The position numbers were made by a program, and so were the translations under genes. Positions 2,513-31,326 of a stretch of DNA of 64,000 nucleotides are shown here, piece after piece. Numbering within the stretch: the first letter of the stretch is position 1; every line of letters begins with the position of its first letter. The stretch comes from a virus: positions 1-64,000 of IMG/VR virus record IMGVR_UViG_3300042907_000878; one strand, written 5' to 3'. Below the pieces are notes generated by a model. The model made no database searches and was not told the DNA's origin. It worked only from the letters and a program-made list of their open reading frames with translations.

Positions 2513-3787
2513 ATGGGAACCTCATATAATCCTAAAATAGTAACAGATGGACTAGTCCTTAACTTAGATCCCGCTAATGTTAAAAGTTATCCAGCGGGTC
2601 AAGACCCTTTTGTTAATAATGTGAGTTTAATGCTTGATGGCGAAAGTCTAATTGACAAAAGCGCAAATGCAAGAACTTTCACTGCCTCGGCAGGAGCGTC
2701 GATTAGCACCGCAAATAAGAAATATGGAAATTCTAGTATATATTGTAATGGAAGTGATAGTTATATTTATAACAGTTCATTTAATAGCTCTTTTAGTGGT
2801 GATTTTACAATTGAATTTTGGGCATATCATAATTCTTTTGGATCTGATAAGGCTTTAATTGCCATAGGAAATGAATCAAGCGGAAGACGTTTAATGTTTA
2901 CAAATAGCAGTGGAAAAGTTGCAGTTGATTTATACGGATTTGGTGTTGTGGGAGTTTTTAATACCACCATATCGACTGGAACTTGGAATCACTATGTATT
3001 AACAAGAAGCGGCACAACGGTAAGATTATTTGTAAATGGAACTTTAGATTCTACTACTATATCAATATCTGGCACTTTTGGTAATGGTAACGGAGTTTAT
3101 ATTGGAGCAGTTTCTACCGCCGCAGTCTCAAGTGATGCGTATTTTGATGATATAAGAATAACTTCGGGAATTTCAAGATATACGGCAAACTTCACGCCTC
3201 CAACAGCTCCGCTATCTTTACCCGGAGTGGTAACTGATTTGACTAAGAATAGATCAATTGCAACGCTTACAAGTGGACCAACCTATAGCAGCGGCGCAAT
3301 AAATCTTGGTGGCACTCCTCAATATCTAGCAATAAATGGTGGAATGCCATCGGGGGCTAGCACTGGATTTACATTTGAGTGTTGGGTTAGAGTGACAGAT
3401 TTATCTAGCTACAGGGCTATTACACGAACCGCTAGTGGGTTAGATATTGGAGTGGATGCAACAACAGGAGTCGTTGGATGTGATCAAACCGGAGTTACAA
3501 GAATATGCGGCACGTCAAGTGGAACTATTGTTGCTGGAGTTTGGACCCATATAGCTGTTACTAGAACCACTGCTAATCTATATACTATATATATTAATGG
3601 AGTATCTAGAGCTACCGGAACTAATTCATTCTCAGTGACTGCTGCTACAACAATAGGGTTTAGCGCATTTAGCACTGCTCACTTTTTTAATGGCAGTATG
3701 AGTATTATTAAGAATTACAATAGGAGCTTATCAGCTAACGAAATCTTACAGAATTTCAATGCGACAAAAGGAAGGTTTGGTCTATGA
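2513..3787 (+). CDS. LamG/concanavalin A-like lectin protein, two domains (putative receptor-binding or decoration protein)
   Basis: GDFTIEFW, WNHYVLTRSG, YFDDIRIT; second domain FTFECWV...WTHIAVTR...YNRSLS. Confidence 0.85.
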   Translation: MGTSYNPKIVTDGLVLNLDPANVKSYPAGQDPFVNNVSLMLDGESLIDKSANARTFTASAGASISTANKKYGNSSIYCNGSDSYIYNSSFNSSFSGDFTIEFWAYHNSFGSDKALIAIGNESSGRRLMFTNSSGKVAVDLYGFGVVGVFNTTISTGTWNHYVLTRSGTTVRLFVNGTLDSTTISISGTFGNGNGVYIGAVSTAAVSSDAYFDDIRITSGISRYTANFTPPTAPLSLPGVVTDLTKNRSIATLTSGPTYSSGAINLGGTPQYLAINGGMPSGASTGFTFECWVRVTDLSSYRAITRTASGLDIGVDATTGVVGCDQTGVTRICGTSSGTIVAGVWTHIAVTRTTANLYTIYINGVSRATGTNSFSVTAATTIGFSAFSTAHFFNGSMSIIKNYNRSLSANEILQNFNATKGRFGL

Positions 3788-4521
3788 GTTTATCACATCA
3801 CCCTAGTATAGTTAAGAATGGATTAGTTGCATATTTTGATGCGGCGAATAAGAAAAGTTATCTGGGAACTGGAACAGTTTGGACTGATTTAACTAAGAAT
3901 AGAGTAGTTGGCACTCTTACCAATACTCCTACTTATAATTCTAGCGGTGGTGGTAGTATAGTATTTACAAGGGCTAGCAATAACTATGTTAGTGTGGGAG
4001 CTTTATCTGGATCTTTTGCTTCATTTTCAGTAATCGTATGGTTTTATGCAACGAATATTGCAAATTATGAAAATGTCTTAGATTGTAATTATGCATATAA
4101 TGGCACTACTGGAAATATTGGTCCAAGACTTGAAATGACTGCTGCTGGAAATTTAGCTTGGGTATATTCAAATATTACAAATAATAATGACTCGTACTAT
4201 TCGCATCCGGTTATTGATAGTGGGATGACTGCAAATTCTTGGCGTTGTGTCGGAATTAGTTATAATAGCAATGGTAATTCTTCTGTCACTTATTTAAATG
4301 GTTTAAATGCTGGAAAATCTAGAGTAACCAGTGGTTCCGCTACCGGATTTATAGCGACCATGAACAATCTAAGAATTGGTCAGGGGTTTAGTTTAAATCC
4401 CCAGACTACTGAAAGAGGATTTGATGGTAGAGTATCTATGGTTCAAATTTACAACAGAGCTTTAACAGCAACTGAAATCCTTCAGAACTACAACGCCACA
4501 AAAGGAAGGTTTGGTTATTAA
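3784..4521 (+). CDS. LamG/ConA-like lectin protein, single domain
   Basis: GLVAYFDAANKKSY N-terminus; FDGRVSMVQIYNRALTATEILQNYNA C-terminus. Confidence 0.85.
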   Translation: MSLSHHPSIVKNGLVAYFDAANKKSYLGTGTVWTDLTKNRVVGTLTNTPTYNSSGGGSIVFTRASNNYVSVGALSGSFASFSVIVWFYATNIANYENVLDCNYAYNGTTGNIGPRLEMTAAGNLAWVYSNITNNNDSYYSHPVIDSGMTANSWRCVGISYNSNGNSSVTYLNGLNAGKSRVTSGSATGFIATMNNLRIGQGFSLNPQTTERGFDGRVSMVQIYNRALTATEILQNYNATKGRFGY

Positions 4522-4540
4522 ACGATGAACGGAGTGAATC

Positions 4541-5896
4541 ATGGGTAATTCTGCTGGACCTAAAATAACTAAAGATGGATTAGTGCTTGACTTTGATGCA
4601 GCAAATCCCAAGAGCTATAATTTCTACGCTGACTCTTATGCTAGTAATGTTAGCTTGCATCTTAAAATGGATGGGGCTAATGGGTCAACTACTTTTACTG
4701 ATTCCAGCCCAAATGCATTGGCAGTGACAGCGGCTGGGAATGCTCAAATTAGCACAACTCAAAGTAAGTATAATGGCACAAGCGCTTATTTTAATGGGTC
4801 TACAGGATATCTGTCGCTAACGGGAAACAGTTCTTTTCAATTTGGGACGGGTGATTTTACAGTTGAAGCGTGGGTCTATATCGCTGCAAATGCAAGTAGC
4901 CAACAGACTTTCTTGGACACTAGAGGTGCAGCTACAGTAGCGCCTTTTACATTTGGGATATATCAGTCAAAATTATTTTTTTATGATGGAACGGTAATTC
5001 AGTCTTCTGCAACAATCACAAGTGGCCAGTGGTATCATTTTGCAGCTTGCAGATCTGCTGGAAACTTGCAGTTATTTATCAATGGAATAAGCTACTATAA
5101 CGCCTCTAACACGACAAATATTACGACTGGCGCGAATAGCATTTATATTGGCAGGGGATTTGATGTAGCGGCGTACTATACAAACGGCTACATTGATGAA
5201 TTGAAAGTCACAAAAGGCGTAGCTCGCTATACATCAGCATTCACATCTCCTCCCATTCCTTCTACTTGTACAGATTTAACTAGAAGTAAAAATGTAGGAA
5301 CTTTAACTGGTGGAGTTGATTATAATTTTTCTAATGGTGGGAGCTTAGCTTTTGCAACCTCTTATGTGTCATCGCCAAGCGCAAACGCATATCAGCTAGG
5401 GGCAAATAATTTTACAATGGAGTCATGGATATATTTAAATGCATATCCACTAGCTAGTAATGGTTTTTATACCGCTATGATCATGTGTAAAGATCAATTG
5501 GGTTCTAGAGGATTTAATTTTTCAATAACAGGAAGTAGTTCAGCTAATACAGCATTACTTTTTGGTGGATTTAGTGATAATTCAACAGCTCAGAGTGCTG
5601 CTCCATCTTTTCCATTCCAATTAAATACTTGGTATCACGTAGCAGCTTCTAGAATTGGAAATCTTTTATATATGTATGTAAATGGTAATTTACTAAATGC
5701 TGGAGGAACTTCTTTTACAACAACAATACAAAGCACAACTTCTGAAGTTAGAATAGGCGCTCAAGTATATAGCGGTGGATATAACTACTATGTTAATGGT
5801 AGAATAGCAATAATGAAATTATATAATGGTAAAGGATTAACTTCCGCAGAAGTATATAATAACTTCGTAGCTAATCGTGGTCGATTTGGTGTATAA
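4541..5896 (+). CDS. LamG/ConA-like lectin protein, two domains
   Basis: GDFTVEAWVY, WYHFAACR, GYIDELKVTKGVARY; second domain FTMESWIY...WYHVAASR. Confidence 0.85.
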   Translation: MGNSAGPKITKDGLVLDFDAANPKSYNFYADSYASNVSLHLKMDGANGSTTFTDSSPNALAVTAAGNAQISTTQSKYNGTSAYFNGSTGYLSLTGNSSFQFGTGDFTVEAWVYIAANASSQQTFLDTRGAATVAPFTFGIYQSKLFFYDGTVIQSSATITSGQWYHFAACRSAGNLQLFINGISYYNASNTTNITTGANSIYIGRGFDVAAYYTNGYIDELKVTKGVARYTSAFTSPPIPSTCTDLTRSKNVGTLTGGVDYNFSNGGSLAFATSYVSSPSANAYQLGANNFTMESWIYLNAYPLASNGFYTAMIMCKDQLGSRGFNFSITGSSSANTALLFGGFSDNSTAQSAAPSFPFQLNTWYHVAASRIGNLLYMYVNGNLLNAGGTSFTTTIQSTTSEVRIGAQVYSGGYNYYVNGRIAIMKLYNGKGLTSAEVYNNFVANRGRFGV

Positions 5897-6886: not shown

Positions 6887-11274
<4,388 letters not shown>

Positions 11275-16944: not shown

Positions 16945-17295
16945 ATGGATGATTTTCAAGGGTACTTGAAAAAACATTTTGATTTTAAACAAAAACGGGA
17001 CGACAGACAAAAAGATATTTCAAAGGAAAAGCTATTAAAAGTCACTAAGAAAAAAGTTCAAACTACAATGATTGGGGCTTTACATAGCGTAGAACAACAT
17101 CTGGGTTTTTTGTGGAATGTAGATAATCCGGGACCAGAAGAAGTTCAATTAAAAGAAATCTTTGAAGACTTGAGGTCTGAAATCTTAGATCGTGGTAATA
17201 ATCAAATAAGGAATCTCGAAAGTGAATTTGCAAATTACGAGATTATCTGGAAGAAATATAGTATGAAACTACCATTTGTGGACAAAGGAGATTAA
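16945..17295 (+). CDS. Hypothetical protein
   Basis: 116-aa ORF tightly packed in the operon. Confidence 0.6.
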   Translation: MDDFQGYLKKHFDFKQKRDDRQKDISKEKLLKVTKKKVQTTMIGALHSVEQHLGFLWNVDNPGPEEVQLKEIFEDLRSEILDRGNNQIRNLESEFANYEIIWKKYSMKLPFVDKGD

Positions 17296-17299
17296 GGTT

Positions 17300-18151
17300 A
17301 TGGCAGAAAATTTACGCACAGTTGTTGAAGGTGATATTACAGTTCTTGTTAAGAAACCTTCACGAAAAGATAAAGACCAAGCTCAAATTGTTTATAGCAA
17401 AGCTTGGAGAAAAGCTCTAGATGATGGGCTGATTACTCGCGCTAAATTAAATGTATACTTGGAAGAACAAGGAATTTGGAGCGATAAGAAACAAAAGCAG
17501 TATGAAGATTTTATTAATAAAATCAATAATAATGAACTATCTCTTAAAAGAGGCGGCATCGCTTTAAAACAAGCTAAAAAACTTGCCCTTGAATTGAAAA
17601 AAACGCGAGTTGAATTTAGAGACTTGATTGCAGAAAGATCTGTGCAGGACAATAACACCGCAGAAGGCTTTGCTGAAAATGCTAAATTTGATTACTTGGT
17701 TAGGACTTGCATTTTAGATCCAAGCACGAAAACTCCTGTTTTTAAAGATGAAAACGATTATGATGAAAGAGGAACTGAAGCTTGGGCAATTAAGGCAGCT
17801 AGCGAGCTTGCTAACTTGCTATATGATTTAGATCCTAATTATGAAAAAAATCTTCCTGAAAATGAATTTCTAGTAAAGTTTAATTTTACTAATGCAGATG
17901 GCAGACTCATTAATAAAGCTAAGCATCTAATTTCAATTGACGAGGATGGCACAGAACGCCTTATTGACGACGAAGGTTATTTTATTGAATATGATGAAGA
18001 GGGTAATCCTCATCGTATTAATCGCAAGGGTGAAAGAACACAAGATCTTACATCCCAACCATTCCTTGATGATGATGGCAATCCAGTTATTTTAGAAGTA
18101 GAAAATACTACTGAAGAAGCTAAAAAAATTAAGAAAAAGAAAGCTGACTAA
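17300..18151 (+). CDS. Putative tail assembly chaperone (gpG-like paralog)
   Basis: ATG at 17300 after GGAG/AAGG; directly upstream of TMP. Confidence 0.55.
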   Translation: MAENLRTVVEGDITVLVKKPSRKDKDQAQIVYSKAWRKALDDGLITRAKLNVYLEEQGIWSDKKQKQYEDFINKINNNELSLKRGGIALKQAKKLALELKKTRVEFRDLIAERSVQDNNTAEGFAENAKFDYLVRTCILDPSTKTPVFKDENDYDERGTEAWAIKAASELANLLYDLDPNYEKNLPENEFLVKFNFTNADGRLINKAKHLISIDEDGTERLIDDEGYFIEYDEEGNPHRINRKGERTQDLTSQPFLDDDGNPVILEVENTTEEAKKIKKKKAD

Positions 18152-18262: not shown

Positions 18263-21200
18263 ATGGCATCAAAGTTTACTATTACTGCTGAATTAAACCT
18301 ACAAACTAAAAACTTAAATCAGGTAGTAAACAACCTAAGACAACAGTTTCAAGGTGCAAATCTTAATATTAATATTAAAGATCTTGCGCAGGCGCAATCA
18401 CAGATTAATAAAATATCTTCCAGCGCCCAAAACGCTCAAAAATCTGTTGGATTATTAGGTAGTAGCTTTAGCCAAGCTTTTAAAAAGTTTACTATTGTTA
18501 CCGCAGTAACTGGAACAATTGTTGGCTTTACAAGAGCGGTGAAAAACGCAGTTGGCGATGCTATTGAGTTTGAACGCGAAGTTGTTAAGATCGCACAGGC
18601 GACTGGAAAAACAACCTCTCAATTAAAAGGTTTGACAAATGAGATAAGTAGCGTATCAACTTCTTTTGGCGTTTCTTCTAAAGAGCTTATTTTAGCTGCT
18701 CGTAGTTTAACACAAGCTGGTTTCGCTGCTGATAAAGTTACAGGCGCATTAAAGATATTGGCCCAAACAGAATTGGCCGCTACGTTTGATTCAATTCAAG
18801 ATACAACAGAAGGCGCTATTGCGCTTTTAAATCAATTTGGCAAGCAAGCTCAAAGAACTGGAAGTGAAGTTGCGTTCCTAGAGAAATCATTCTCCGCTAT
18901 CAATCAAGTGTCTAAAGAGTTTGCCGTAGAGTCAAGTGACTTAGTTACAGCCGTTCGTACAACGGGATCTGCATTTGAGAGTGCTGGTGGTAGTTTAGAT
19001 GAACTCCTAGCATTATTCACATCTGTTAGAGCTACTACTCGCGAATCTGCCGAGAGTATTGCTACTGGCTTTCGTACAATTTTTACTCGCGTACAGCGCG
19101 TCGATACAATCAATAACCTTAAAGCTCTTGGAATCGAATTACAAGACGCCGAAGGTAAGTTCATTGGCCCAATTGAAGCTACTAAAAAACTTAGCGCAGC
19201 CCTTAACTCTATTGATCCTAGAGATTTTCGTTTTAATCTTGTTGTTGAAGAGTTAGGTGGATTCCGTCAAGTTTCTAAAGTTATTCCATTAATTCAACAA
19301 TTTGCAGTAACTCAAAAAGCCCTTAATGTGGCCCAAGGATCTAGCGGATCACTAGCCAAAGACGCTCAAACCGCTCAACAGTCATTAGCAGTCCAAATAG
19401 CTAAAACTAGAGAAGAGTTTTCTAGATTTATTAGAGATCTAACTGGCACAGACTCATTCCAAAGCACTGTAAGATTTCTTCTTGACCTTGCTAATGCTTT
19501 CGTTAGAGTCGCCGACAGTATTAAACCTCTTGTGCCTCTTATTGCTGGGTTTGCTACGCTTAAAGCTGGGACCGCAGTCAAAGGCGCATTTGATCAACTT
19601 GCTGGTCCTAGAAGAAAGGCCCAAGGTGGAAAGATTCACGCCTTTGCTAGTGGAGGTCTTGTTCCCGGCCAAGGCAATGGCGACACTGTTCCTGCTATGT
19701 TAACTCCGGGCGAATTTGTTATTAAGAAAAGCTCTGTTAAAAGCTTGGGTGTTGAGAATTTAGCTAGAGCTAACAAATATGCCGATGGTGGATATGTTAT
19801 TAGACCACAGCCGGGTAAGTTTGCTGGATTTTTTATGCAGCCAGAAGGTGTAAAAGATTCATCTCTTGTTAGTCAGGGGCAAGCAGTCACTAATGATGCT
19901 ACAAGAGAAGGTTTATTAAATCAAGTTAATAAGAATTTTAAACTATATAAAAGTGGAAAATTAAGCAATAAAGAAACTAATTTAATTTCTTCACAAGCAA
20001 TTAATGATTATCAACCAAGCACAGACACGCTTAAAAAAGCGATATCGGGTAATATTTTTTCTAGAGAAGATTTTAAAAATTATCTTTCTATGGGAAAAGG
20101 CACTCCAGAAGATTTAATAAAACAAGCTGTAACTGATAACAAAATAGATAAAAACTCTGCTGGCTTATTAAAAACGGGCTTGTCTAATGAAAAGGCGAAG
20201 TACGATAAATTTGTTCAATCAAAAATAAACTCATCAACTCCACAAGGTTTAAATGCATTATCTAAAGGCAAAGGAATTAAAATTGCGGCAGAAGAAAATG
20301 ATGTTCCCGCGTTTTATATTGGAGAAGATGATGGCCCCAGATCACAAGCAATGCGTGGAGCTATCGCCAAGAAAACAAAAGATGGATTTTCAAGTATTCT
20401 TTCTGGAATAGGCACTGATCCTGCTTTTAAAGACATTGGACTTCCTCCGTTGGATGTAAAAGGCGACGCTATTAAAAAAGCCATAGAGCCGCTGTTCAAT
20501 AGCCAAGATCCAAAATCAGCCCGTGTAACTATTGAAGGATATGTTTTAGAAGGTATTACTGCTGCATTAACTGGTATAACATTAGGTGGCAGTGATACCA
20601 CATGGGATTTTCCACAAGTTGCAAGTAGTGCTGAAAAACTAGGAAAATTATTTGGTCAAACTTCTCGTATATCACAAGTAGAAAGTGGCGACGCAAAAAG
20701 ATCAAATACCGACAAAGCTAAAAATAGTATTTTAACTAAAAAAATAGCATCTACACTATTAAAACGTCCAGAACTTATTGGTAATGTAAAAGAATTTGCC
20801 AATGGTGGATTCGCATCTGGTTCAGATACAGTGCCAGCCATGCTTACTCCGGGCGAATATGTCATAAATAAAAAATCCGCTCAGGCAATTGGCTATGGTA
20901 GTCTTAACAGAATGAATAAGGTTGGTAAATTTGCTGAGGGTGGCCCAGTTCAGATGTACCAGACTGGCACTCCTACAGGTGGCGCTAGTTCTCCAAGAGT
21001 TTTCCAAACTACATCTACCGGAGTTACAACAGTAACTAATCAAGCCGCTATAAATGCCCAAGCTCAACAACAAAGTTTTATAGAGAGACTAAAAGAATCT
21101 TCTGATAAATTATTATTATTGGGCGCTGTAGCTGGATCTGTCACTAGCCAACTTGGTGGACTTGATCAAGCAACTGCTGATATTGTTTCCAGTTTTGGCG

Positions 21201-24200
21201 CAACCTTTGCAACCATCAAAGGAATTGGTGGAAATTTAATAGATCTTGGATCTAACATAAAAGGTGTAAATCCTAAAGTATTAAGTGGGGTATTGACTGG
21301 ACTTTCGGCTGGATTAACAGGTTTTGCAACTGCACAAGCTGTTGCGGCTGCAAGGATTACATATCTTGGACAAACAGCAGAAGAGAGCGGCAAGAAGTTT
21401 AATTCTTTTATTGAAGCCTTGTCTAAAGGAGAAGGTACTACTCAAGGTCAATTGACTGATGCATTAACTAAGCAATTCCAAGCTGCATCTGACGCTCAGG
21501 CTAGAGGCTCAGGTGCTGCTAAGGCTGCTGGAGGAGTTGCATCTTTAGTTGCTGGAGGCGGGGCTATAGCTTTAGGAGCGGGCGCTTTTGCGCCTATAAT
21601 TGCTGCTGTAGCTGGCCCACTTACAGAAGAAATTTTATATTCAATCGGAGCATTTTCAGATTCAACAGGAAAAGCAAAAGTTCAAGCCGAAGCCTTATCT
21701 GCGGCTATGTTTTCTGCCACAACATCAAATCGCGATTTTCAAAAATTCTTTCAAAATATTGAAAAGCAAACTCCACAAGATGTCGCACAGCAAGCTCAGT
21801 CTTTAGCTCAAGCGTATAAAGAACAGCAAGCCCAAATCGCAAAACTGGGTGATTTGAGTAACGCGAGTGAAGCTGTAAAACAACAATTTCAAGCAGTTTC
21901 AGAATCAGCTAAACAGACTGCCGCAAACTTACAAACGATCATCGGAATCCAATTACAAAATGCAGTAAAACGATCTTCCGATCTTCTAAATAAAGGATTT
22001 ATTCCTGATATAGATAAATTATTGAAACCAATATTTGATTCTATACGTTCTGCTGCTGTAACAAGATATTCTGGACGAATAGAAACTGCTGGTGGAGAAC
22101 AAACTGCTCAAGGAATGAATCTTGTTGGTCAACGTGAAAACGAAATAGCAAGAGATCAGGAAAATGCCCGTAAGACTTTAAACCAAGCAACAAAACAGCA
22201 ATTAGAAATGATTGCCGTTTTAAATATTGAAAATAACATTAGAAAAGAGCTTATTGGATCTCTTCAAAAACAATCTGCGATTAGTGCAAGCATAGAAAGA
22301 CTGTCTTATGAATTAGACTTAGCTTCTAAGTCTGTATCCAATATAGATGCTGCCTTTTCAGGTTCTATAACTGGACTTAAATCTTCGTTTGATACCGATA
22401 TATTAAAATTAAAATCTCCAGATCAGGGTGCTTTAGATAAAGCCTTAGATCCTGTTAGAGCGGTTGGGCCAATTGGTAGAGACTTAGCTGATAATTTGGT
22501 TAATATAAATCAAGTTATGCCAACTCTTGAAGCGAAATTAATTGAGTTTTCCAATGCTACAGACACTGCTAGCGGGGCTTTATTTGATGTAAAAAAATTC
22601 GTAGAAGAGTCTTTTAATATTAAAGCCGACAGTATCGTCGGAAGAACTTTAGTTAAAATAATAGAAGGTACGACTACAGGAACTGGCGGTGAAAAAGCCG
22701 TTACTGCTGCTAAAACGTCTCTTAGACAAGAAGACGTTAGAAAGAAAATTGTTGAATCATTCCAAAAATTTGGCGAAGAATTCCGCACTCAAGCTGGTGG
22801 AATTTTAGATAATTTAGCTAGAGCAGAGCAAGAAGGTCGCGCTGTTGCAGAAAAAATCAATGAATCCAGACAAAAACAATTAGATCTACAACTACAAAGC
22901 GTTGATACATTCTCAAACTATATAGATGCCTTAGCTAAAGCCAGAGGCCGCGATTTAAGTTTGATTGAGAAGAACACTATTCGCACAATGAAGCAATATA
23001 CACTTGCTGGAAACATGGCGAATAATGTAGGAGCAATATCGACTGAACTTTCTGGTATATATAAAAAATTAAATGAAGGTGGATTAAATTTAGATGAACA
23101 AAAGAATCTTTCATTCTCTGCAACTAAATTAAGATCTGCACTTGAGGATCTTGCTGATCAATCTGGAAAAACTTCTGATATTCTTGCTGAAATTGAAAAG
23201 CAAAGAGCAAAGAGAGAGTCGGCTAGAGACTTTGGTAAAGAGTTTACTTTTGGCTCAAATGAACAAAGACAAAGTATAGCAAATTCTATTCAAGGACTCC
23301 AAAGAGTTTTGAATACTGGAAATATTAATGATGTTCCAGAAGAACTGAGATCTGGGGTTTCTTCATTACTAGACCGTTTCAAGGACGTTCCGGTATTTAA
23401 TGGAAGAACCGGAAGACAAGTTGAAAATAGACTTATTGCCAATCAATTTAGAGCAATGGGTGGCGGTGCATTTGCTAATATGATCGAGGCTGACACGTCA
23501 ACCCCTGAGCAGATATTAATTGGGGAACTGCAAAGAACATTCGCGATCCAAATACAAGCTCAACAAGCCCTGTCTCTGTTGGAGCAACAGAAGCAAGAAC
23601 TATTACAGGGTGCATTAAATGAATATACTACTGCAATTGGTAGTTATACAGCTAAATTAGAAAGTCTTGTGCAAGAGTTTCAAAGAAAAGCAGAAGAAAA
23701 AGCAATTCCAACCGTAACGCCGTCTGTGATTGCTAGCCCAAAAACTACATTACCCGCAGCTCCTTTTTCTGGTGGATCTATGGGTGTTTTAAATACATTA
23801 GTTGAAAATCCAAATCCAAATCTTCCACCCGATGCTAAAGCTAAAATTGATCTTGAAAATATTCAGGAAACAAATAGCGCAATTGAAAATTTTGGACAGG
23901 CTATTACTACTTCAGATCAAAAAATATATGAGTTTACCGCAAGATTAGAAAATCTTGTTAAGGTAATGGAAAACACTAAAAAGGAATGGCAACCAGCTAC
24001 AAAGCAAGAGATTGAAAATGCAAATAATCAACCCGGCACAGGTCAGAGTTTTGGAAGTTATGCTATTGGCGGGTTGGTATATCGCGCCGGTGGTGGTTCT
24101 ATATTTCAACCTAAAGGCACAGACACAGTTCCAGCAATGCTCACTCCGGGCGAGTTTGTTATCAAGAAAAGCTCAGTCGATAAGATTGGGGCTGATAATT

Positions 24201-27181
24201 TAAGCGCATTAAATAACGGATACGCCAGTGGGGGTCTAGTATCTTATTTAGCTGGTGGCGGTGGAGCTTCTGGAACTAACGCCTTTAACGACCTTGCTAA
24301 AAGAGTTACTAAGCTTGAAGAAGAAGTTAAAAAACTAGAAAAAGAAAATAAAATATTAAAAGGTAGTCTAGGCAAAATTTCCCCGATGAATCAAATTGCG
24401 GGTGGAATGCAAAACATGCAGCAGATGATGAGTGGAATGCAAAACCCTCAGCAGATGATGGGTGGAATGTCTTATGGTAATATGATGAACCAAAGATATT
24501 CTAGCGGCAGAGGTGCTACAAGAAGTCAATTAAGAGCTAGAGAAAATGCAGACAAGAGAAGTGCTGACGAGGCATTTGTAGATATAATGGGGCCACAATT
24601 TGAAGAAAATGCAGCTGATAGAGCTGAAAATGTCCCATCCGTTCTTAATATGGGTGGCACTAGAAGACAAGTTAGAGCTAGACAAGAGTCTTTAAAAAGA
24701 AGAGACGAGAAAGCCTTGGCAAACGAGCTAGGACTGGGCGAAGAAGCACAAGCCGAGCAAGCGGCAGCAGCAGAAAAGATGACCCTTATAGAATCCGCAG
24801 CAGGAGCAAGACGAACAGATAATACTGATGATATGAGTCAGGACGTACGCCTTAAGTTTTACACTCATTTTCTAGACACAAATCCTAATGGTCTGATGGC
24901 TTACATGATAAACGATAAGAATGCTAGGCATAGGGAACAGACAGGAAAATCAGCTCCCGGTGATTATTATACTCCAGACGCTGTGCCTACACGCGCAGGA
25001 GGTCCACTGAACAGAGCAAAAGGCGATGGATCGACAACACTCGGCAATACTAAAGAAGAGCAGGCATTTGTAGCAGGAGAAAGGGAGGCAGCAACCACTG
25101 CTACGGCAGCAACGGCAACAGCTACTCCACCGACTTCTCCTGTCCCGACCATGGACTCGCTTGCCCTAGCCGCCCTAGCCCGCCAAGAGGCAGCAACCAC
25201 TGCTACGGCAGCAACGGCAACAGCTACTCCACCTCCAGAAACAGCACCTACGCCTCCCTCCACGCTATCGAAGTTGATGGATCGGGCAGGGGATCTAGTA
25301 GATGTTCCACCACAGCAAGAAGCAGCAACTACTGCTACAGCAGCAGCAGCCACTTCACCTCCACCTAATGAATCTGAGCCTGAAGAAAGACCTCTGTCAT
25401 TTGCGGAACAATCGGCTAATGCAAATCAAAGAAGGCGTGAGGTTACGTCCATCCCAAAAATAGCTACATCTTACGCATCGCAAATATTGGGACCAAAACA
25501 ATCTACAGCAGAAGAAAAAGGAGGCAAAGCAGGATTAGACCATGTGAATTCGATGCTGGCGATAGCTTATGGCGTGCAAAAGCACAGAGCGCCGATTGGA
25601 CTACAGGGACTTCCTAGAGACACCAACTATAATACAAGTCTTGACCCCAACATGGGTGAAAGTGTTACCAATTGGGATCACAGAAAAGTTCCTTTGGGTG
25701 ATTTAGGTTTACCACCTGAAAAAGAAGCAGCAACTGCTGCTACAGCTCAAACTCCTGAACAAAAATTAAGAGAAGTTAACGCTAAAATAGATTTAATGAC
25801 TGGAACTAAAGAATCATTACCTACTACCAAAAATCCTAATGCTCCAATAGGTACGGTTTCAACTGGAAAGGGCGAAACTGGCCCAAGAGGGCTGGAGGGT
25901 GCTAATCAATTACAAGCATTAGATCAAGAACGCCAACAGTTAATGGCTAGCAGAGAATCAGCAAAAACTGGTCCACAGCCAGTATCTGAATTTAAAAAAA
26001 ATGCGCAAGCCGAAATTGATAAAAAATATCAAGAAGCATTAGCTAAAAATGAAGCAGAGTATTTGGCAATTGCCGATCCTTCACATGTGAATAGCCCAGA
26101 CGTTCAAAAAAATATACAAGAAATATCAGAAAAAAGAAGTCGAGTTAACGCACAAAAAGAAGCTATGGATTTATATTTTGGACCTGAAATGTCTTATGCT
26201 CCTGTAGATATTCCGGGCTTATCTGATAGAAAAATTCAATCTTTTGACAAGCCTAAAGAAAACCCTACAGTACAAGAAAATTTTAGAAAATCTAGAGAAC
26301 TTTTGTTTGACGACAAACAAGCCAAAGAAGATGCAAAAAATTCGCCTTTATCAAATATACTCGACACTGCTAGAACTGCAAGCAATGCTATTTTTGATCA
26401 AAACAGTATTTCTACTGTTGGGCATGAAGCAATTGCAACGATTCAAGATTCAGTACTAGCTGAAGAAGGAAGAACTTTTAAATCAAATATCAAGAAGAAT
26501 ATGAATCTACGACAACAATTACAAGGATATGCTAGTGGTGGATTAATCTCTTATCTTGCGAGCGGTGGATCTCCTAAAGGTTCAGACACAGTTCCTGCAA
26601 TGCTTACTCCCGGCGAATTTGTTATGAAGAAAGACTCCGTATCTAAATATGGTAAATCTTTTATGGAGAAAATGAACAAAGGGGGAGTTGTTCCGGGGTT
26701 TGCTGATGGCGGCTATGTCGGGTACTATGCTGAAGGTGGAAATGCTACAATACGTAATAGAAGAGCTAGAGGCATGTATGATGGTCAGATGGCGACAACT
26801 GCACAGGCTATGCAAAGAAGCGTTGGAATGCGTCAAAACATGATGTCAAATCAATTTGCTAACAATCCTGCGGTACAGCAAGGTGTAATGGCCAACCCAA
26901 TGCAAAAGCCAGCAACTGGGGGCGGGAACACTACAGGGGCAGTTGGTGGTGGAATGTCCGATGCAGCCCAACAGTTTTCACAGTTTGTTACTCAATTCTC
27001 AGACGCTGCCAAGATGATGACAGGAATGACTATGACTCATAAAGTTACAGTTGATGGACAATTAAATATAGGTGGAATAGACGGAAATGCCGTAGCTGAA
27101 CAAATTAAAATTGCTATAGGAAATTATGTTGGAAAAATAGTAGAAGATAAAATGAGCAAGAAAATGGGAGAAGCAACCTAA
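18263..27181 (+). CDS. Tail tape-measure protein, 2972 aa, multi-domain
   Basis: N-terminal TP901-type TMP core (AIEFEREVVKIAQATG...RESAESIATGFRTIFTR); Ala/Gln-rich helices; four DTVPAMLTPGE[FY]V modules; synteny. Confidence 0.9.
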   Translation: MASKFTITAELNLQTKNLNQVVNNLRQQFQGANLNINIKDLAQAQSQINKISSSAQNAQKSVGLLGSSFSQAFKKFTIVTAVTGTIVGFTRAVKNAVGDAIEFEREVVKIAQATGKTTSQLKGLTNEISSVSTSFGVSSKELILAARSLTQAGFAADKVTGALKILAQTELAATFDSIQDTTEGAIALLNQFGKQAQRTGSEVAFLEKSFSAINQVSKEFAVESSDLVTAVRTTGSAFESAGGSLDELLALFTSVRATTRESAESIATGFRTIFTRVQRVDTINNLKALGIELQDAEGKFIGPIEATKKLSAALNSIDPRDFRFNLVVEELGGFRQVSKVIPLIQQFAVTQKALNVAQGSSGSLAKDAQTAQQSLAVQIAKTREEFSRFIRDLTGTDSFQSTVRFLLDLANAFVRVADSIKPLVPLIAGFATLKAGTAVKGAFDQLAGPRRKAQGGKIHAFASGGLVPGQGNGDTVPAMLTPGEFVIKKSSVKSLGVENLARANKYADGGYVIRPQPGKFAGFFMQPEGVKDSSLVSQGQAVTNDATREGLLNQVNKNFKLYKSGKLSNKETNLISSQAINDYQPSTDTLKKAISGNIFSREDFKNYLSMGKGTPEDLIKQAVTDNKIDKNSAGLLKTGLSNEKAKYDKFVQSKINSSTPQGLNALSKGKGIKIAAEENDVPAFYIGEDDGPRSQAMRGAIAKKTKDGFSSILSGIGTDPAFKDIGLPPLDVKGDAIKKAIEPLFNSQDPKSARVTIEGYVLEGITAALTGITLGGSDTTWDFPQVASSAEKLGKLFGQTSRISQVESGDAKRSNTDKAKNSILTKKIASTLLKRPELIGNVKEFANGGFASGSDTVPAMLTPGEYVINKKSAQAIGYGSLNRMNKVGKFAEGGPVQMYQTGTPTGGASSPRVFQTTSTGVTTVTNQAAINAQAQQQSFIERLKESSDKLLLLGAVAGSVTSQLGGLDQATADIVSSFGATFATIKGIGGNLIDLGSNIKGVNPKVLSGVLTGLSAGLTGFATAQAVAAARITYLGQTAEESGKKFNSFIEALSKGEGTTQGQLTDALTKQFQAASDAQARGSGAAKAAGGVASLVAGGGAIALGAGAFAPIIAAVAGPLTEEILYSIGAFSDSTGKAKVQAEALSAAMFSATTSNRDFQKFFQNIEKQTPQDVAQQAQSLAQAYKEQQAQIAKLGDLSNASEAVKQQFQAVSESAKQTAANLQTIIGIQLQNAVKRSSDLLNKGFIPDIDKLLKPIFDSIRSAAVTRYSGRIETAGGEQTAQGMNLVGQRENEIARDQENARKTLNQATKQQLEMIAVLNIENNIRKELIGSLQKQSAISASIERLSYELDLASKSVSNIDAAFSGSITGLKSSFDTDILKLKSPDQGALDKALDPVRAVGPIGRDLADNLVNINQVMPTLEAKLIEFSNATDTASGALFDVKKFVEESFNIKADSIVGRTLVKIIEGTTTGTGGEKAVTAAKTSLRQEDVRKKIVESFQKFGEEFRTQAGGILDNLARAEQEGRAVAEKINESRQKQLDLQLQSVDTFSNYIDALAKARGRDLSLIEKNTIRTMKQYTLAGNMANNVGAISTELSGIYKKLNEGGLNLDEQKNLSFSATKLRSALEDLADQSGKTSDILAEIEKQRAKRESARDFGKEFTFGSNEQRQSIANSIQGLQRVLNTGNINDVPEELRSGVSSLLDRFKDVPVFNGRTGRQVENRLIANQFRAMGGGAFANMIEADTSTPEQILIGELQRTFAIQIQAQQALSLLEQQKQELLQGALNEYTTAIGSYTAKLESLVQEFQRKAEEKAIPTVTPSVIASPKTTLPAAPFSGGSMGVLNTLVENPNPNLPPDAKAKIDLENIQETNSAIENFGQAITTSDQKIYEFTARLENLVKVMENTKKEWQPATKQEIENANNQPGTGQSFGSYAIGGLVYRAGGGSIFQPKGTDTVPAMLTPGEFVIKKSSVDKIGADNLSALNNGYASGGLVSYLAGGGGASGTNAFNDLAKRVTKLEEEVKKLEKENKILKGSLGKISPMNQIAGGMQNMQQMMSGMQNPQQMMGGMSYGNMMNQRYSSGRGATRSQLRARENADKRSADEAFVDIMGPQFEENAADRAENVPSVLNMGGTRRQVRARQESLKRRDEKALANELGLGEEAQAEQAAAAEKMTLIESAAGARRTDNTDDMSQDVRLKFYTHFLDTNPNGLMAYMINDKNARHREQTGKSAPGDYYTPDAVPTRAGGPLNRAKGDGSTTLGNTKEEQAFVAGEREAATTATAATATATPPTSPVPTMDSLALAALARQEAATTATAATATATPPPETAPTPPSTLSKLMDRAGDLVDVPPQQEAATTATAAAATSPPPNESEPEERPLSFAEQSANANQRRREVTSIPKIATSYASQILGPKQSTAEEKGGKAGLDHVNSMLAIAYGVQKHRAPIGLQGLPRDTNYNTSLDPNMGESVTNWDHRKVPLGDLGLPPEKEAATAATAQTPEQKLREVNAKIDLMTGTKESLPTTKNPNAPIGTVSTGKGETGPRGLEGANQLQALDQERQQLMASRESAKTGPQPVSEFKKNAQAEIDKKYQEALAKNEAEYLAIADPSHVNSPDVQKNIQEISEKRSRVNAQKEAMDLYFGPEMSYAPVDIPGLSDRKIQSFDKPKENPTVQENFRKSRELLFDDKQAKEDAKNSPLSNILDTARTASNAIFDQNSISTVGHEAIATIQDSVLAEEGRTFKSNIKKNMNLRQQLQGYASGGLISYLASGGSPKGSDTVPAMLTPGEFVMKKDSVSKYGKSFMEKMNKGGVVPGFADGGYVGYYAEGGNATIRNRRARGMYDGQMATTAQAMQRSVGMRQNMMSNQFANNPAVQQGVMANPMQKPATGGGNTTGAVGGGMSDAAQQFSQFVTQFSDAAKMMTGMTMTHKVTVDGQLNIGGIDGNAVAEQIKIAIGNYVGKIVEDKMSKKMGEAT
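25085..25233 (+). repeat. Perfect 47-nt direct repeat in TMP (EAATTATAATATATPP); degenerate copies at 25319 and 25724
   Basis: gaggcagcaaccactgctacggcagcaacggcaacagctactccacc at 25085-25131 and 25187-25233. Confidence 0.9.
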
Positions 27182-30100
27182 TGTCGTCATCATCAAAAAA
27201 TAATTTAGTCCCATTAACAATAATTGGCGCTAGTGGTTATAACAGTATACTGTCCACTAGATCACTATATATGCAGTCTAATTTGTCTAGCGGAGAGCTT
27301 CCATTATATTTAAAACAAACCCCAAATAGGAGCGGCATTTTAAAAGCCGAGACTAACTGGGACTTGTCTCTTAATTCAAATTCTCATATTAATCATTTTT
27401 CTAATGGCGATATTGAATATGAACAACGAGACTTTTCATCAAATAAATATGACTCATATTATGGAAATAATCGTGGGCAAGAAGCAATTAAATATACACT
27501 ATCTCATGACTGGTCGATAACAGATATTGCCGCCGAAAAGGATGTTATGGCAGTGTCTACAAAAGGCTGGACCAGCTTTGAAAAGTACACTACTGATATA
27601 TCTGACAATGATATTTTTTCAACATATATTAGTCCAGTATTTTACTATCCTTTGCCACAACCAATTACACAAACTATTACCGTATATACATTTACAATAG
27701 TATGGGATTCAAAAACTGGATGTCGCATCAATACTCCCGGAAATATAGTTGTTAACTATATATATAATGGTGAATATTTAACTGAAACACAATATGTTAT
27801 AGATGATGACGCTGATACTATTGGGCCACTCCAAGCTACCTCATGGCCTCCAATCATTAGTTGGACAGGAGATCCGAGTGATGAACCATGCATAGAGCCA
27901 CCCGTCTATACAACTTCAACAGTCACAACAACTACATATCCAGATTTGCCCAGCGATGCAATTGTACTTGAAAATAGTTATATTAGAACATCGGAGTTAT
28001 CTCCTAAAATATCAAGATATATTATACCAGAAGTTTCAAACATATTTAAAGATCAAAATTTTAATTGGATGAATATAAATTCACCAAACTTTGAAGTTCC
28101 TGATTATAGTGATATTTATATTAGAGTAGTTTATGACTCCGCTGCAATAAATCCAATTCAAACAAAATATTTACAACCAGTGGTTACAGTTGGAAATGAA
28201 GAAAAAATCTATAAATTTGGTGGATTTTTAAATATTGATAATTTTTATAATGGTTTATATGATAATGCTATATTAACATCAAAGCCAACACTTGACGATG
28301 ACTATGATGAGCTTTGGTATATTGTTACTAAAGACGATGGGACTTATTGTTTTGTTGGATTGTCAAGTTATACAACATGGGAATACTCTCTTGATTTTAA
28401 TTTTCCATTCGACCAAACTAATTTAATAACGGCAGATCATTTAATTGTAGGCTGGAAAAAGCCGAGCTTTCGTAGTTTTGAAATTATAAAAGTTGCAGGA
28501 TTTCCAAACTGTGGCAAAGTTGATATTTATTTTCCAAAAGTGGGTGTTATTAACACATTTGCAAGTGGTACAAATGAGGTGACATCCTCTAATCACGGGC
28601 TTTCAACAGGCGACCGTATCAAGATCACAGAAGCTCTTGGTAGTGGAAATACAATGAACGGAGTTAGATATGTATCCACTATAGATCCAAATAAATTTGC
28701 ATTGTATTATGATAGTTCTTTATCTTATGGAGCTGCTATATATAATACCACAACAGCTTCGGGCGTTAGGTGGTCTGCAATTGATGGTAATACTTGGGGT
28801 TATAATTTAACTCTGTATTCTCCAATGGGTAAAAATGGCTATTCCACAACGTCCCAATTAAGAACTTCTATCGAGCAACCACAGGGCGAAACCCCATATG
28901 AAAGAGCTGTTGAGAGCAGCGACACAAACAAGCCCCAAGCAAATTTAACTGGTCAAAGATCTTGGAATAATTATTATCCATACGAAAGATTTGATTCGGG
29001 CGATAATATTATATTTGGCGTCGTCAATGGTAATAAATTTGGTGCTGACATATCGCTTAAAAAATATGGCGATAATTATATTCTTATGGTTGCCGAAGAA
29101 GGCGCTAGTGAATCTTTTCAGTTAGTAAGCTCATACGCAACAAAAATAACTGAAACAGTGCCACAAAATAAAAAAGTAATACCTTCGTTTTTTCCATATG
29201 GGCGAATCCATTTTTATACAATTAATCCATCTGCAAGATCTATAGATTATTTAACAACATATTCTCCATCAGACAACCCTTGGGCTGCTTACGAAACAAT
29301 TAATCGTCAAGAAAAATTATTGAATCAATTGAGTTTATATGAAAATAAAAAATTACAGATTTCAGATATAAATTTATACAACACAACAACAAATAATTTT
29401 TGGAATGGGGCTAGATTTCTTCAGTGGAGTAAAAATTATATTTATAATTCAGATCTAGATTTTAATCTTCCTGATCAAAATGGTAATCAGTACGATTACG
29501 GTTTTGTAGATAGACTTAAAACTGCGGATTTTGAAATTTCTAACGACACTATATATTGTTCAGCAATATCTAATGTAAAAAATGCAGACTTTAATAATTA
29601 TTTAAGACTTAAAAATATAGATAGATATATTAAATTAATATATTTTGATATCGCCACTCCATTTGTCAAATCTACAGATCTTATAAATTTAAATAATTCA
29701 TCATATGCAACAGTGGATGTTAGCATTCAGAAGGAAGAGATGGATTTATTTGGAAATAAACTTTACGCATTTGATAATAGAGTCGTAACTGGATGGGCAT
29801 CTGACTATAGACAATCTGAATATATTTATAACTATATAAGAAATGGCAATATATTAACATTGTCTGATACAATATCAAGCGATGGAAATAGAGGGTTTGG
29901 TAATTATTTAGTTACACAAGGTACAATTTTAATAACTAATAAATATAATATTTATGATGAAAATGAAAATGTTACAACAAATCCACTGCAATCGCTAGAA
30001 GTTTATAGATATGATAGAATTGCTAATAGATATTATTATGTTAGCTCTTTAAGTCCAACAATTAATTTAAATAATTCTATATATTCTGATATAAATAGTG

Positions 30101-31326
30101 ACACTTATGAGTTAACAACAAATCTCGCCTACGATGGAACTTCGGATAACTCTGCCACATATATTATTAATTTAGATGGCAAGTACGATCTTAAGAATGA
30201 CTGTTTAGTGATGAGAGACTGGAACGAGTGCGTTGGTTTTCAGTTTGATTATTCTTCAAACACTTTTAAAAATAAATTTCATAATTTTTCAACAAAGTCT
30301 TCTCAAAATTCAATCATTAGATTGGCAGAAGGAAAACAAAGTTCATTATTTGACACTTCCATAGAATATGACACTGGCGATTATCACCAGTCTCTTCAGA
30401 TTTTTGACGCTGTTCAAATTGATGAAAACTCATTAAATAATTATGTTATAATAATGGATACTCATTATCCAAACTATGTGCCTTTATTTATGAAGACAAT
30501 TGAAGGCTATTCATCAGGCAACCCAATTTTATATACAGCTGGTCATGCGCCATATGCAACGGGCGCGCCTTTGTATATGCAGCCCCCCATGCCTTTAGCT
30601 ACTGGAATGTCTCTTTTTGCAAAACAGATTGATATTGCAGATACGGGCTTGTCATTGTTTCATAAATCAACAAGTATATTGGAAACTGGTGTTGATTTAT
30701 TTATTAGAAATGGATTCGCTACTGGTGGGTTCCCATTAGTGTTCAGTTCTGTTGAAAAGATGAATTTTCCATTATATATTTCTAACATAGTTCCAACTGT
30801 ACTAATTGACAATGATATAAATTTATTTATCTATTCTGCATATAATGTAGCTCAATCACCAACTCCTTCATCCTATAATGATTATCCTGATTTGATAAAT
30901 AATCCAGTAGTTCCAAATAACTACTTTGTTATGCCATTATTTATCTCAACTATACAGTATGACGATAATGCAAATGGTTTAAATTTATATTTAGATGCTC
31001 CCGGATTTTCTTCGACTGGATCAATTAGTTTATACCAAAACGCAGGTAGCGCAAATGGTTTATCTGGACAAACATTTAAGAGTCCTTCTTTATATACTTA
31101 TGGATCAGGATATAAAGGCAACGAATTAAATGCAGGAGCAAATTTATTTATTAAATGTCCAATAACAACACAAGTTCCTCTATTTGTGTATAATACTACA
31201 TCAACAGGAAACATTCCACTGTATGTAAGTGGGGCAAACGTAGTAACAACTGGTGTAAGTTTATACTGTTCTGGTGTTCATTATCCAAACAGCACGGTAA
31301 CACTTATGATTGATGGGGACTTATAA
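27181..31326 (+). CDS. Large tail tip/baseplate-associated protein with terminal PL[FY] repeats
   Basis: TAATG-coupled to TMP; VTSSNHGLSTGDRIKIT small beta-barrel motif; repeated [ST]Gx[PSD]L[FY] units. Confidence 0.55.
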   Translation: MSSSSKNNLVPLTIIGASGYNSILSTRSLYMQSNLSSGELPLYLKQTPNRSGILKAETNWDLSLNSNSHINHFSNGDIEYEQRDFSSNKYDSYYGNNRGQEAIKYTLSHDWSITDIAAEKDVMAVSTKGWTSFEKYTTDISDNDIFSTYISPVFYYPLPQPITQTITVYTFTIVWDSKTGCRINTPGNIVVNYIYNGEYLTETQYVIDDDADTIGPLQATSWPPIISWTGDPSDEPCIEPPVYTTSTVTTTTYPDLPSDAIVLENSYIRTSELSPKISRYIIPEVSNIFKDQNFNWMNINSPNFEVPDYSDIYIRVVYDSAAINPIQTKYLQPVVTVGNEEKIYKFGGFLNIDNFYNGLYDNAILTSKPTLDDDYDELWYIVTKDDGTYCFVGLSSYTTWEYSLDFNFPFDQTNLITADHLIVGWKKPSFRSFEIIKVAGFPNCGKVDIYFPKVGVINTFASGTNEVTSSNHGLSTGDRIKITEALGSGNTMNGVRYVSTIDPNKFALYYDSSLSYGAAIYNTTTASGVRWSAIDGNTWGYNLTLYSPMGKNGYSTTSQLRTSIEQPQGETPYERAVESSDTNKPQANLTGQRSWNNYYPYERFDSGDNIIFGVVNGNKFGADISLKKYGDNYILMVAEEGASESFQLVSSYATKITETVPQNKKVIPSFFPYGRIHFYTINPSARSIDYLTTYSPSDNPWAAYETINRQEKLLNQLSLYENKKLQISDINLYNTTTNNFWNGARFLQWSKNYIYNSDLDFNLPDQNGNQYDYGFVDRLKTADFEISNDTIYCSAISNVKNADFNNYLRLKNIDRYIKLIYFDIATPFVKSTDLINLNNSSYATVDVSIQKEEMDLFGNKLYAFDNRVVTGWASDYRQSEYIYNYIRNGNILTLSDTISSDGNRGFGNYLVTQGTILITNKYNIYDENENVTTNPLQSLEVYRYDRIANRYYYVSSLSPTINLNNSIYSDINSDTYELTTNLAYDGTSDNSATYIINLDGKYDLKNDCLVMRDWNECVGFQFDYSSNTFKNKFHNFSTKSSQNSIIRLAEGKQSSLFDTSIEYDTGDYHQSLQIFDAVQIDENSLNNYVIIMDTHYPNYVPLFMKTIEGYSSGNPILYTAGHAPYATGAPLYMQPPMPLATGMSLFAKQIDIADTGLSLFHKSTSILETGVDLFIRNGFATGGFPLVFSSVEKMNFPLYISNIVPTVLIDNDINLFIYSAYNVAQSPTPSSYNDYPDLINNPVVPNNYFVMPLFISTIQYDDNANGLNLYLDAPGFSSTGSISLYQNAGSANGLSGQTFKSPSLYTYGSGYKGNELNAGANLFIKCPITTQVPLFVYNTTSTGNIPLYVSGANVVTTGVSLYCSGVHYPNSTVTLMIDGDL

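Follow-up and report, generated by a model that had tools for sequence, protein, structure and literature searches.

Tape measure proteins (TMPs) of tailed phages are treated as rulers and channel formers that carry at most one fixed cell-wall hydrolase. In phage lambda, gpH loses a C-terminal piece of ~14 kDa, gpHC, from "the glycine-rich region", yielding gpH* (PMC12617516). In T5, pb2 is cut after R1127, which separates a 43-residue anchor, docked in the hub once this has opened, from pb2C, the part bearing the enzyme (PMC10038345). For JBD30 gp46, a 'hook' of two helices and a beta-hairpin (aa 1022-1066) has been predicted, which is suggested to keep the TMP in place in the opened baseplate once the C-terminal domain has been expelled, with a predicted cut at 1066 (PMC11445458). 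Here, we analyze the TMP of an uncultured aquatic phage represented by IMG/VR record IMGVR_UViG_3300042907_000878, a contig of 91,282 bp with a CheckV completeness of 61%, of which positions 1 to 64,000 are referred to as the window. The gene is one uninterrupted open reading frame (ORF) encoding 2,972 aa (P0001; coordinates are given in Table 1), in which a ~60-aa module, also present in gpH and in the JBD30 hook, occurs four times and marks the boundaries of cassettes that related phages exchange as a whole.

The 2,972-aa protein belongs to the TP901-type TMPs: PF10145 (phage minor tail protein, TP901-type TMP core) matches aa 127-318 at 79.7 bits, above the curated cut-off of 33.2, and the PHROG tape-measure families phrog_4211, 28, 3547 and 973 match as well. 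A first-pass annotation, made from the sequence without database searches, had described four near-identical modules in this protein, and they were found exactly where it placed them. The 13-residue core DTVPAMLTPGE[FY]V occurs at aa 474, 855, 1954 and 2775 (nt 19682, 20825, 24122 and 26585), with [FY]AxGG motifs on both sides of each copy (nt 19643, 19778, 20795, 20930, 24059, 24221, 26528, 26699 and 26726), so that a module reads as [FY]AxGG, a beta-hairpin DTVPAMLTPGEFV, two short helices and a second [FY]AxGG. A profile built from the four copies returned four matches with i-E values of 1e-24 to 1e-28 in a six-frame scan of the 91,282-bp contig, which is far beyond chance given that the next best hit had an E-value of 2.7; there is no fifth copy in the contig. 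The segment layout that had been outlined was likewise recovered, with PF10145 in the N-core, a hydrophobic Gly/Ala-rich stretch in the body (aa 1088-1121, nt 21524-21625) and a low-complexity cassette bearing EAATTATAATATATPP-type repeats in front of the last module. Paired bracketing of the inserts, on the other hand, was not. Five segments are joined by four modules, one module per pair of neighbouring segments, and relatives with 3-10 modules are built in the same way; the modules are therefore separators rather than paired brackets.

At the DNA level, the module copies are only 63-78% identical over 81 nt, with 30-35 of 39 nt conserved in the invariant core. Since the DNA has diverged while the peptide was kept, identity is maintained at the protein level by selection, and a recent duplication or an assembly artefact is ruled out as the origin of the copies. 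Each position has its own conserved module subtype. Between different proteins, modules that occupy the same position are 70% identical, compared with 54% for different positions within one protein and 53% for different positions between proteins. The multiplication must therefore be old and the positions orthologous, with no homogenisation within the gene, which also rules out recent duplication or gene conversion. The first-pass annotation had regarded the module as a signal multiplied in this protein; judging from these identities, it is instead an ancient junction that was multiplied long ago and became position-specific.

A word-indexed search retrieved more than 1,000 TMP homologues of 1.6-5.2 thousand amino acids (kaa), and the best 120 of these each carry 3-7 modules, the first always located at aa ~455-520. 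Clustering of the inter-module segments of 245 proteins revealed a fixed order: N-core, module, slot 1, module, body, module, slot 3, module, C-tail. The N-core forms a single family in 232 of the 245 relatives (47-100% identity), and the body and C-tail clusters contain 128 and 160 members, respectively. Slot 1 holds one of several alternative families, among them type 3 (80 members), type 5 (47 members, including the present protein), type 6 (32) or type 7 (20), and in some relatives an extra cassette with another module is inserted after the module that follows slot 1. Slot 3 is highly diverse, 280 of 384 clusters being singletons, and is missing altogether in P0022-24 and P0035. TMPs with more modules are longer (r = 0.81 for length against module number), and the lengths of close relatives span 1,657 to 4,240 aa.

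The exchange of cassettes is most clearly illustrated by relative P0003. From the N-core to the end of M1 (aa 1-512), it is 99.4% identical to the present TMP; over aa 513-834, in the slot-1 cassette (cargo 1), there is no detectable similarity; and identity resumes at 95% over aa 835-2086, comprising M2, the body, M3 and 93 further residues. These first ~93 aa are the only part of the slot-3 cassette (cargo 2) common to both proteins, similarity over most of it being weak or absent, and from aa 2765, inside M4, to the end the two are again 93% identical. P0007, P0009 and P0014 have cargo 1 in common (65-79% identity) but bodies that are only 31-37% identical. When alignments of at least 70% identity were examined across 61 relatives, 73% of their internal ends fell no more than 10 aa from a module, as opposed to 11% of random positions; these breakpoints were mapped at the protein level and are not independent events, and after collapsing repeated positions the fraction is 41%.

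We are confident that the modules are conserved, position-specific junctions and that related phages swap whole cassettes by recombination in conserved flanks. Judging from the protein alignments, exchange most likely takes place between orthologous junctions together with their conserved flanks. Both the expectation that inter-module segments vary between otherwise similar TMPs and the suggestion that the modules serve as recombination anchors are thus borne out by the replacement in P0003 and the enrichment of breakpoints. Collinear conservation of segments folding as ordinary TMP helices had been named as the outcome that would speak against separable cargo; the chassis is indeed collinear across relatives, but the slots are exchanged and cargo 1 is not predicted to consist of TMP helices.

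Table 1. Features of the TMP gene and its immediate neighbours (nucleotide positions in the window, with residues of the TMP in brackets)
Feature	Position	Strand	Basis and remarks
TMP gene	18263..27181	+	single ORF; PF10145; PHROG TMP families; >1,000 homologues
N-core	18263..19624 (aa 1-454)	+	TP901-type TMP core, PF10145 at aa 127-318; hydrophobic stretch before M1
Module M1, 'after N-core' subtype	19625..19798 (aa 455-512)	+	profile match, i-E 1e-28
Slot-1 cassette, cargo 1, type 5	19799..20779 (aa 513-839)	+	segment clustering; AlphaFold2 model
Module M2, 'before body' subtype (YVINKKSAQAIGYG...KFAxGG)	20780..20950 (aa 840-896)	+	module profile
Conserved TMP body	20951..24040 (aa 897-1926)	+	collinear in 128 relatives at 26-97% identity
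Module M3, 'after body' subtype	24041..24241 (aa 1927-1993)	+	module profile
Slot-3 cassette, cargo 2	24242..26509 (aa 1994-2749)	+	acidic; begins as a coiled coil; repeats are Met/Gln-rich or, in three cases, of the EAATTATAATATATPP type
Module M4, 'before C-tail' subtype	26510..26719 (aa 2750-2819)	+	module profile
C-tail	26720..27178 (aa 2820-2972)	+	conserved terminal segment; cluster of 160 relatives
Candidate tail assembly chaperone pair	16945..18151	+	overlapping ORFs; basis is position and overlap only
1,381-aa downstream gene	27181..31326	+	synteny in relatives (1,443 aa in L002); presumed distal tail or hub protein

The module is widespread. Its profile detected 20,706 proteins at E ≤ 1e-3 among 1.84 billion cluster representatives, 984 of them at E ≤ 1e-30, and the best 150 module-carrying proteins are 1.7-7.9 kaa long with 3-11 copies each, the number also seen in giant metagenomic TMPs; as many as 11 copies occur in proteins of 7.8 kaa. 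TMPs of cultured sipho- and myophages carry the module too, in many siphophages usually as a single copy. In searches of the profile against all PDB sequences it was located once in lambda gpH (aa 732-784, E 9e-5; FHFATGG...GIVHRGEFV...GYATGG), outside PF06791 and PF09718, where the first-pass annotation had placed a segment of this kind. Mycobacteriophage Douge gp16 has two copies (aa 962-1027 and 1411-1472, E 9.8e-12). JBD30 gp46 contains one module at aa 1016-1068 (E 2.4e-5 in a three-sequence test), which coincides with the published hook at 1022-1066. In the structures, gpH is not seen between aa ~690 and 817 (PMC12617516), and of Douge gp16 only aa 1658-1699 are shown (PMC13033339).

In T4-like cyanophages, proteins in the gp29 (tape measure) position, encoded after gp26/gp51, carry the identical 13-residue DTVPAMLTPGEFV core once (S-SCSM1_213, L008 2177-5029; S-SM2_012, L009 2963-5263). 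The occurrence of an identical 13-mer in such distant phages suggests either exchange among aquatic phages or very strong constraint. In S-SCSM1, the module lies ~55 aa upstream of a glucosaminidase domain. This neighbourhood would fit a small LysM-like element that binds the cell wall and so anchors the TMP, once ejected, on the peptidoglycan together with its enzyme cassettes, as would the order strand-helix-helix-strand (FVI, two helices, GYVIR) of the module when modelled in context. However, at a threshold as loose as E 10, 53 module copies gave no match to LysM or to another Pfam family, noise aside, the spacing of conserved residues is unlike that of LysM, and the isolated module does not fold, so that we regard a LysM-like role as very improbable.

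The lack of a fold concerns the module on its own. AlphaFold2 (AF2) gave a pLDDT of 54 and a pTM of 0.2 for the isolated module, as expected for a motif that would fold only on a partner or in an oligomer; together with the missing Pfam family, this argues against an autonomous domain. When M1, cargo 1 and M2 were modelled as one chain, both modules adopted a hairpin (TVPA/FVI) followed by two short helices, which are the elements of the JBD30 hook. At the profile level, the module matches this lambda/JBD30-type hook. The near-C-terminal position agrees as well, the distance to the C-terminus being ~150 aa for M4, 69 aa for the lambda module and 90 aa for that of JBD30, and M4 aligns with gpH aa 747-785 (BLASTP, E 6e-4). 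In gpH, a hydrophobic Gly-rich stretch comes before the module and the hub-binding C-terminus after it, a layout that M4 and the C-tail share. By position, M4 is the counterpart of the single module in lambda gpH and JBD30 gp46, with M1-M3 as additional internal copies relative to single-module TMPs. The C-tail is presumed to be the hub-binding end by analogy with the lambda, T5, JBD30 and Douge structures (PMC12617516, PMC10038345, PMC11445458, PMC13033339); its sequence similarity to the gpH C-terminus is not significant. In contrast to the present TMP with its PF10145 core, four modules and two cassettes, gpH has an N-terminal core of PF06791 and PF09718, one module and no inserts.

We next considered what the cassettes contain. 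For cargo 1, which had been described as globular, an AF2 model based on an alignment of 39 sequences reached a mean pLDDT of 74.5, with most of the cassette between 75 and 90, and the cassette is indeed predicted to be a globular alpha/beta domain rather than TMP helices. Structure prediction thus agreed with the first-pass annotation for the cassette and failed to provide a fold for the module itself. Four residues of cargo 1 (E763, D782, K812 and K827) are invariant in the 39 sequences and fit the order of a PD-(D/E)xK site, with D or E two residues before K812; the order of secondary structure elements in the model is not the classical alpha-beta-beta-beta-alpha-beta of this fold. No nuclease family was recognised in Pfam or the PHROGs, Foldseek against the PDB gave nothing at E ≤ 1e-3, and a VIA-wide fold search returned a Z of at most 6.5 for generic helices (model residues 112-207), with no nuclease among the credible matches. 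Searches of Pfam, PHROGs, PDB sequences, Foldseek PDB, Foldseek BFVD, VIA-wide and the protein atlas (best score 0.79) similarly assigned cargo 1 to no known fold or family.

Cargo 2 is acidic, of low complexity and itself a mosaic, as the first-pass annotation had noted in part. Its GC content is 45% (positions 24001-26000), while the parts of the gene on either side have 36-39%. At 24402-24469 there is a 30-nt tandem repeat rich in Met and Gln, and a 47-nt unit encoding EAATTATAATATATPP occurs at 25085-25131, 25187-25233 and 25319-25365, two copies being identical and one 79% identical. No family match was obtained for cargo 2. The raised GC content and the repeats suggest a foreign or rapidly evolving low-complexity insert.

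A recognisable enzyme was encountered in the slots of relatives. P0025 contains, at aa 923-1135 and between modules at 803-867 and 1143-1198, a PF03496 ADP-ribosyltransferase (ADPRT) exoenzyme domain (39 bits, cut-off 23.4), and P0036 carries the same domain at aa 886-1098 (39 bits). The complete cassette (L015 4968-5792; P0025 aa 868-1142) is 100% identical in both proteins, while their neighbouring cassettes differ. Its STS (FLSTSRD) and ExE (GKEKEM) motifs are intact and it matches phrog_3895 weakly; no match was found among PDB sequences. More distant or weaker ADPRT-like cassettes are present in five further giant TMPs, twice in P0123. The present TMP has no ADPRT domain. The proposal that unrelated enzyme domains occupy the slots therefore holds for P0025 and P0036, but not for most cassettes, including both described here, in which no enzyme could be recognised.

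Overall, this is a mosaic giant TMP in which N-core, ~1,030-aa body and C-tail form a chassis holding two exchangeable cassettes, with one ancient ~60-aa module at each boundary. For the working model as a whole, towards which we incline at somewhat better than even confidence, the cassettes would be passenger segments, stored in or with the TMP in the tail lumen. They would leave the tail C-terminus first and enter the host envelope or cytoplasm before the DNA does, giving the phage a changeable set of proteins to deliver; in relatives, an ADPRT is found at this place. We consider delivery of the cassettes an evenly balanced proposition, made because of general TMP biology, T5 pb2C and the presence of an ADPRT, T4 being known to inject an enzyme of this class, Alt (PMC7824862; PMC5512222 for context). 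The module would act as a docking or junction element, and the polypeptide might be cut beside it during tail maturation or ejection, parting the cassettes from the ruler and channel; drawn by analogy, this cutting or docking at each module is put forward tentatively. Its most far-reaching form, in which the module combines a hub-docking hook with a maturation or ejection cut site and giant TMPs are tail-lumen polyproteins delivering shuffled effectors (ADPRTs, a nuclease-like domain and unknown folds) ahead of the DNA, is speculative and on balance improbable.

Cleavage near the module can be considered most directly in lambda. By mass, the 14-kDa fragment starts at ~aa 710-725, 10-25 aa upstream of FATGG, which puts the module inside gpHC and downstream of the mass-mapped cut, as the only conserved feature beside it. 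In T5, the cut between anchor and enzyme domain follows the logic proposed for the present TMP. The module profile gives no match to pb2, in which only the site of the cut mapped by mass spectrometry (PR|AEGGMM; L033, aa 1120-1135) resembles [FY]AxGG; this may be a coincidence. Both JBD30 and T5 have a single junction, unlike the present TMP. One way of explaining cleavage would be a module that cuts itself, making the TMP a self-processing polyprotein. Conservation of the 13-mer is extreme, with D, E, K and N invariant or nearly so within the close module family, and no C1, NlpC/P60 or JAB peptidase was found in the contig. These polar residues are, however, not kept in the lambda, Douge and JBD30 modules, which share no conserved Ser, Thr, Cys or Asn nucleophile, and the module has neither a predicted fold of its own nor a Pfam family or any similarity to known autoprocessing domains. 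Autoproteolysis is hence improbable.

Several observations weigh against delivery and cutting. The exact cut site and the protease of gpH have not been established (PMC12617516), which would equally leave room for self-cleavage; homology of pb2 to the module is not supported, 249 of 1,000 shuffles scoring as high; and the JBD30 cut is a prediction only. Cutting at the modules is proposed by analogy with lambda and T5 only. In none of 22 loci from relatives is the gene naturally split at a module, the TMP being a single ORF in all of them. Peptidases of families PF00112 (C1), PF00877 (NlpC/P60) and PF14464 (JAB) are absent from the contig, which represents ~61% of the genome. A folded 35-kDa domain in 3-6 copies would be too big for a lumen of ~4 nm, so that cassettes would have to be stored extended or unfolded. 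As for their contents, an enzyme domain (ADPRT) was recognised in only two of 120 close relatives, scans of four giant relatives found PF10145 and no enzyme domain, PDB sequence searches with four family members and PHROG searches with six further cassettes gave no matches, and both cassettes of the present TMP lack a recognisable enzyme in Pfam, PHROGs and PDB sequences. Neither cargo 1 nor the ADPRT cassette has a standalone homologue of near length, and a scan of viral contigs with cargo 1 for standalone genes found none; the cassettes are therefore not obviously mobile effector genes. Finally, Piuri and Hatfull reportedly observed in 2006 that motifs embedded in mycobacteriophage TMPs count towards tail length, and the inserts may thus simply lengthen the ruler.

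Many of these points are accommodated by the main rival explanation, in which the modules serve as structural joints and nothing else (oligomerisation nodes, hooks docking to hub or tube, or chaperone-binding sites, for example), and the inserts tune tail length or a conduit across the envelope to suit different host envelopes, without processing or cargo, mosaicism resulting from recombination at conserved sequence. Besides the intact ORF in every relative examined, the shortage of enzyme signatures and the lack of a protease in the contig, this is consistent with a module that behaves like a linear interaction motif, has no fold of its own and corresponds to the JBD30 hook (PMC11445458), with slot-1 cassettes that belong to a few conserved families confined to TMPs, and with a host that is probably a planctomycete with an unusual envelope (see below). 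On the other hand, an ADPRT with intact motifs has no rationale in a ruler or channel, cargo 1 is predicted to be globular, the TMPs of close relatives differ about two-fold in length, and lambda and T5 cut their TMPs near the corresponding region. We judge a purely structural role possible but doubtful, and retain the mosaic TMP with passenger cassettes as the working model.

Several known systems resemble this model in part. A functional domain inside a tail-lumen protein that is delivered at infection is also found in T5 pb2 (metallopeptidase), SPbeta YomI (transglycosylase) and the cyanomyophage gp29-position proteins (glucosaminidase), the last even with the module directly upstream of the enzyme. 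These are single, fixed cell-wall hydrolases, whereas the slots described here are polymorphic between near-identical phages and the one enzyme recognised in relatives, ADPRT, acts on cytoplasmic-type targets. The polyvalent proteins of phages and conjugative elements (Iyer et al. 2017; PMC5512222) and polymorphic toxin systems likewise consist of giant proteins with many segments. These presumably reach the host along with the DNA, include ADP-ribosyltransferase (ART) domains, vary in a cassette-like manner and have been proposed to be processed. Polyvalent proteins are, however, head or internal proteins with embedded zincin-like peptidases, in contrast to a TMP carrier with a dedicated separator module and no peptidase domain, and the paper describing them does not mention tape measures (PMC5512222). 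Where polyvalent proteins combine several catalytic domains, none was recognised in P0001 in Pfam, PHROGs or PDB sequences, and P0025 and P0036 have one ART domain each; an embedded processing peptidase was found neither in P0001 nor in the seven relatives scanned. TMP-related reconfigurable effectors of contractile injection systems (Sle1; PMC13277306) are similar in that a TMP-like carrier in a tail-like tube bears an exchangeable functional domain, and differ in belonging to an actinobacterial contractile injection system and in having a C-terminal functional domain only. In the literature, we found no description of a repeated TMP junction module or of cassette-swapping TMPs.

An uncatalogued module present in ~20,000 protein clusters, among them the TMPs of lambda, JBD30 and mycobacteriophages, marks the boundaries of the cassettes that near-identical phages swap, and these cassettes constitute a large reservoir of orphan folds. 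The module also offers a testable handle on where and how gpH is cut and on the role of gpHC. Should the cassettes be delivered, the tail lumen would be a second, polymorphic route of protein injection, which would matter for host takeover and counter-defence as well as for engineering the payloads of phages or tailocins. Should the module moreover combine hook and cut site, these TMPs would be the tail-borne counterpart of polyvalent proteins and polymorphic toxins, and the long-puzzling conversion of gpH to gpH* and gpHC would be explained.

The genomic neighbourhood of the TMP gene is syntenic in relatives, with an overlapping ORF pair on the 5' side and a large gene on the 3' side, all without a family match. 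The upstream ORFs (16945-17295, 116 aa, and 17276-18151, 291 aa) immediately precede the TMP gene, overlap in different frames and are laid out like the gpG/gpGT tail-chaperone frameshift pair; no canonical slippery heptamer was seen in the overlap. No sheath family was detected, and the tail is therefore likely of the siphovirus type. Outside the window, contig positions 75346-76470 (- strand) encode a protein of the DUF1559 family (PF07596) whose N-terminus bears a prepilin methylation motif. DUF1559 is a family typical of planctomycetes, and the presence of this gene suggests that the host is probably a planctomycete, with its unusual envelope. A 312-aa ORF in the same part of the contig (72857-73795, - strand) has no Pfam match. 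Within the window, a gene at 6890-10492 (+ strand) encodes a 1,200-aa collagen-like tail fibre protein that matches PHROG collagen-like minor tail and tail fibre families with E-values down to 1e-68, and is preceded by several genes for baseplate-wedge-like virion proteins (2513-5896).

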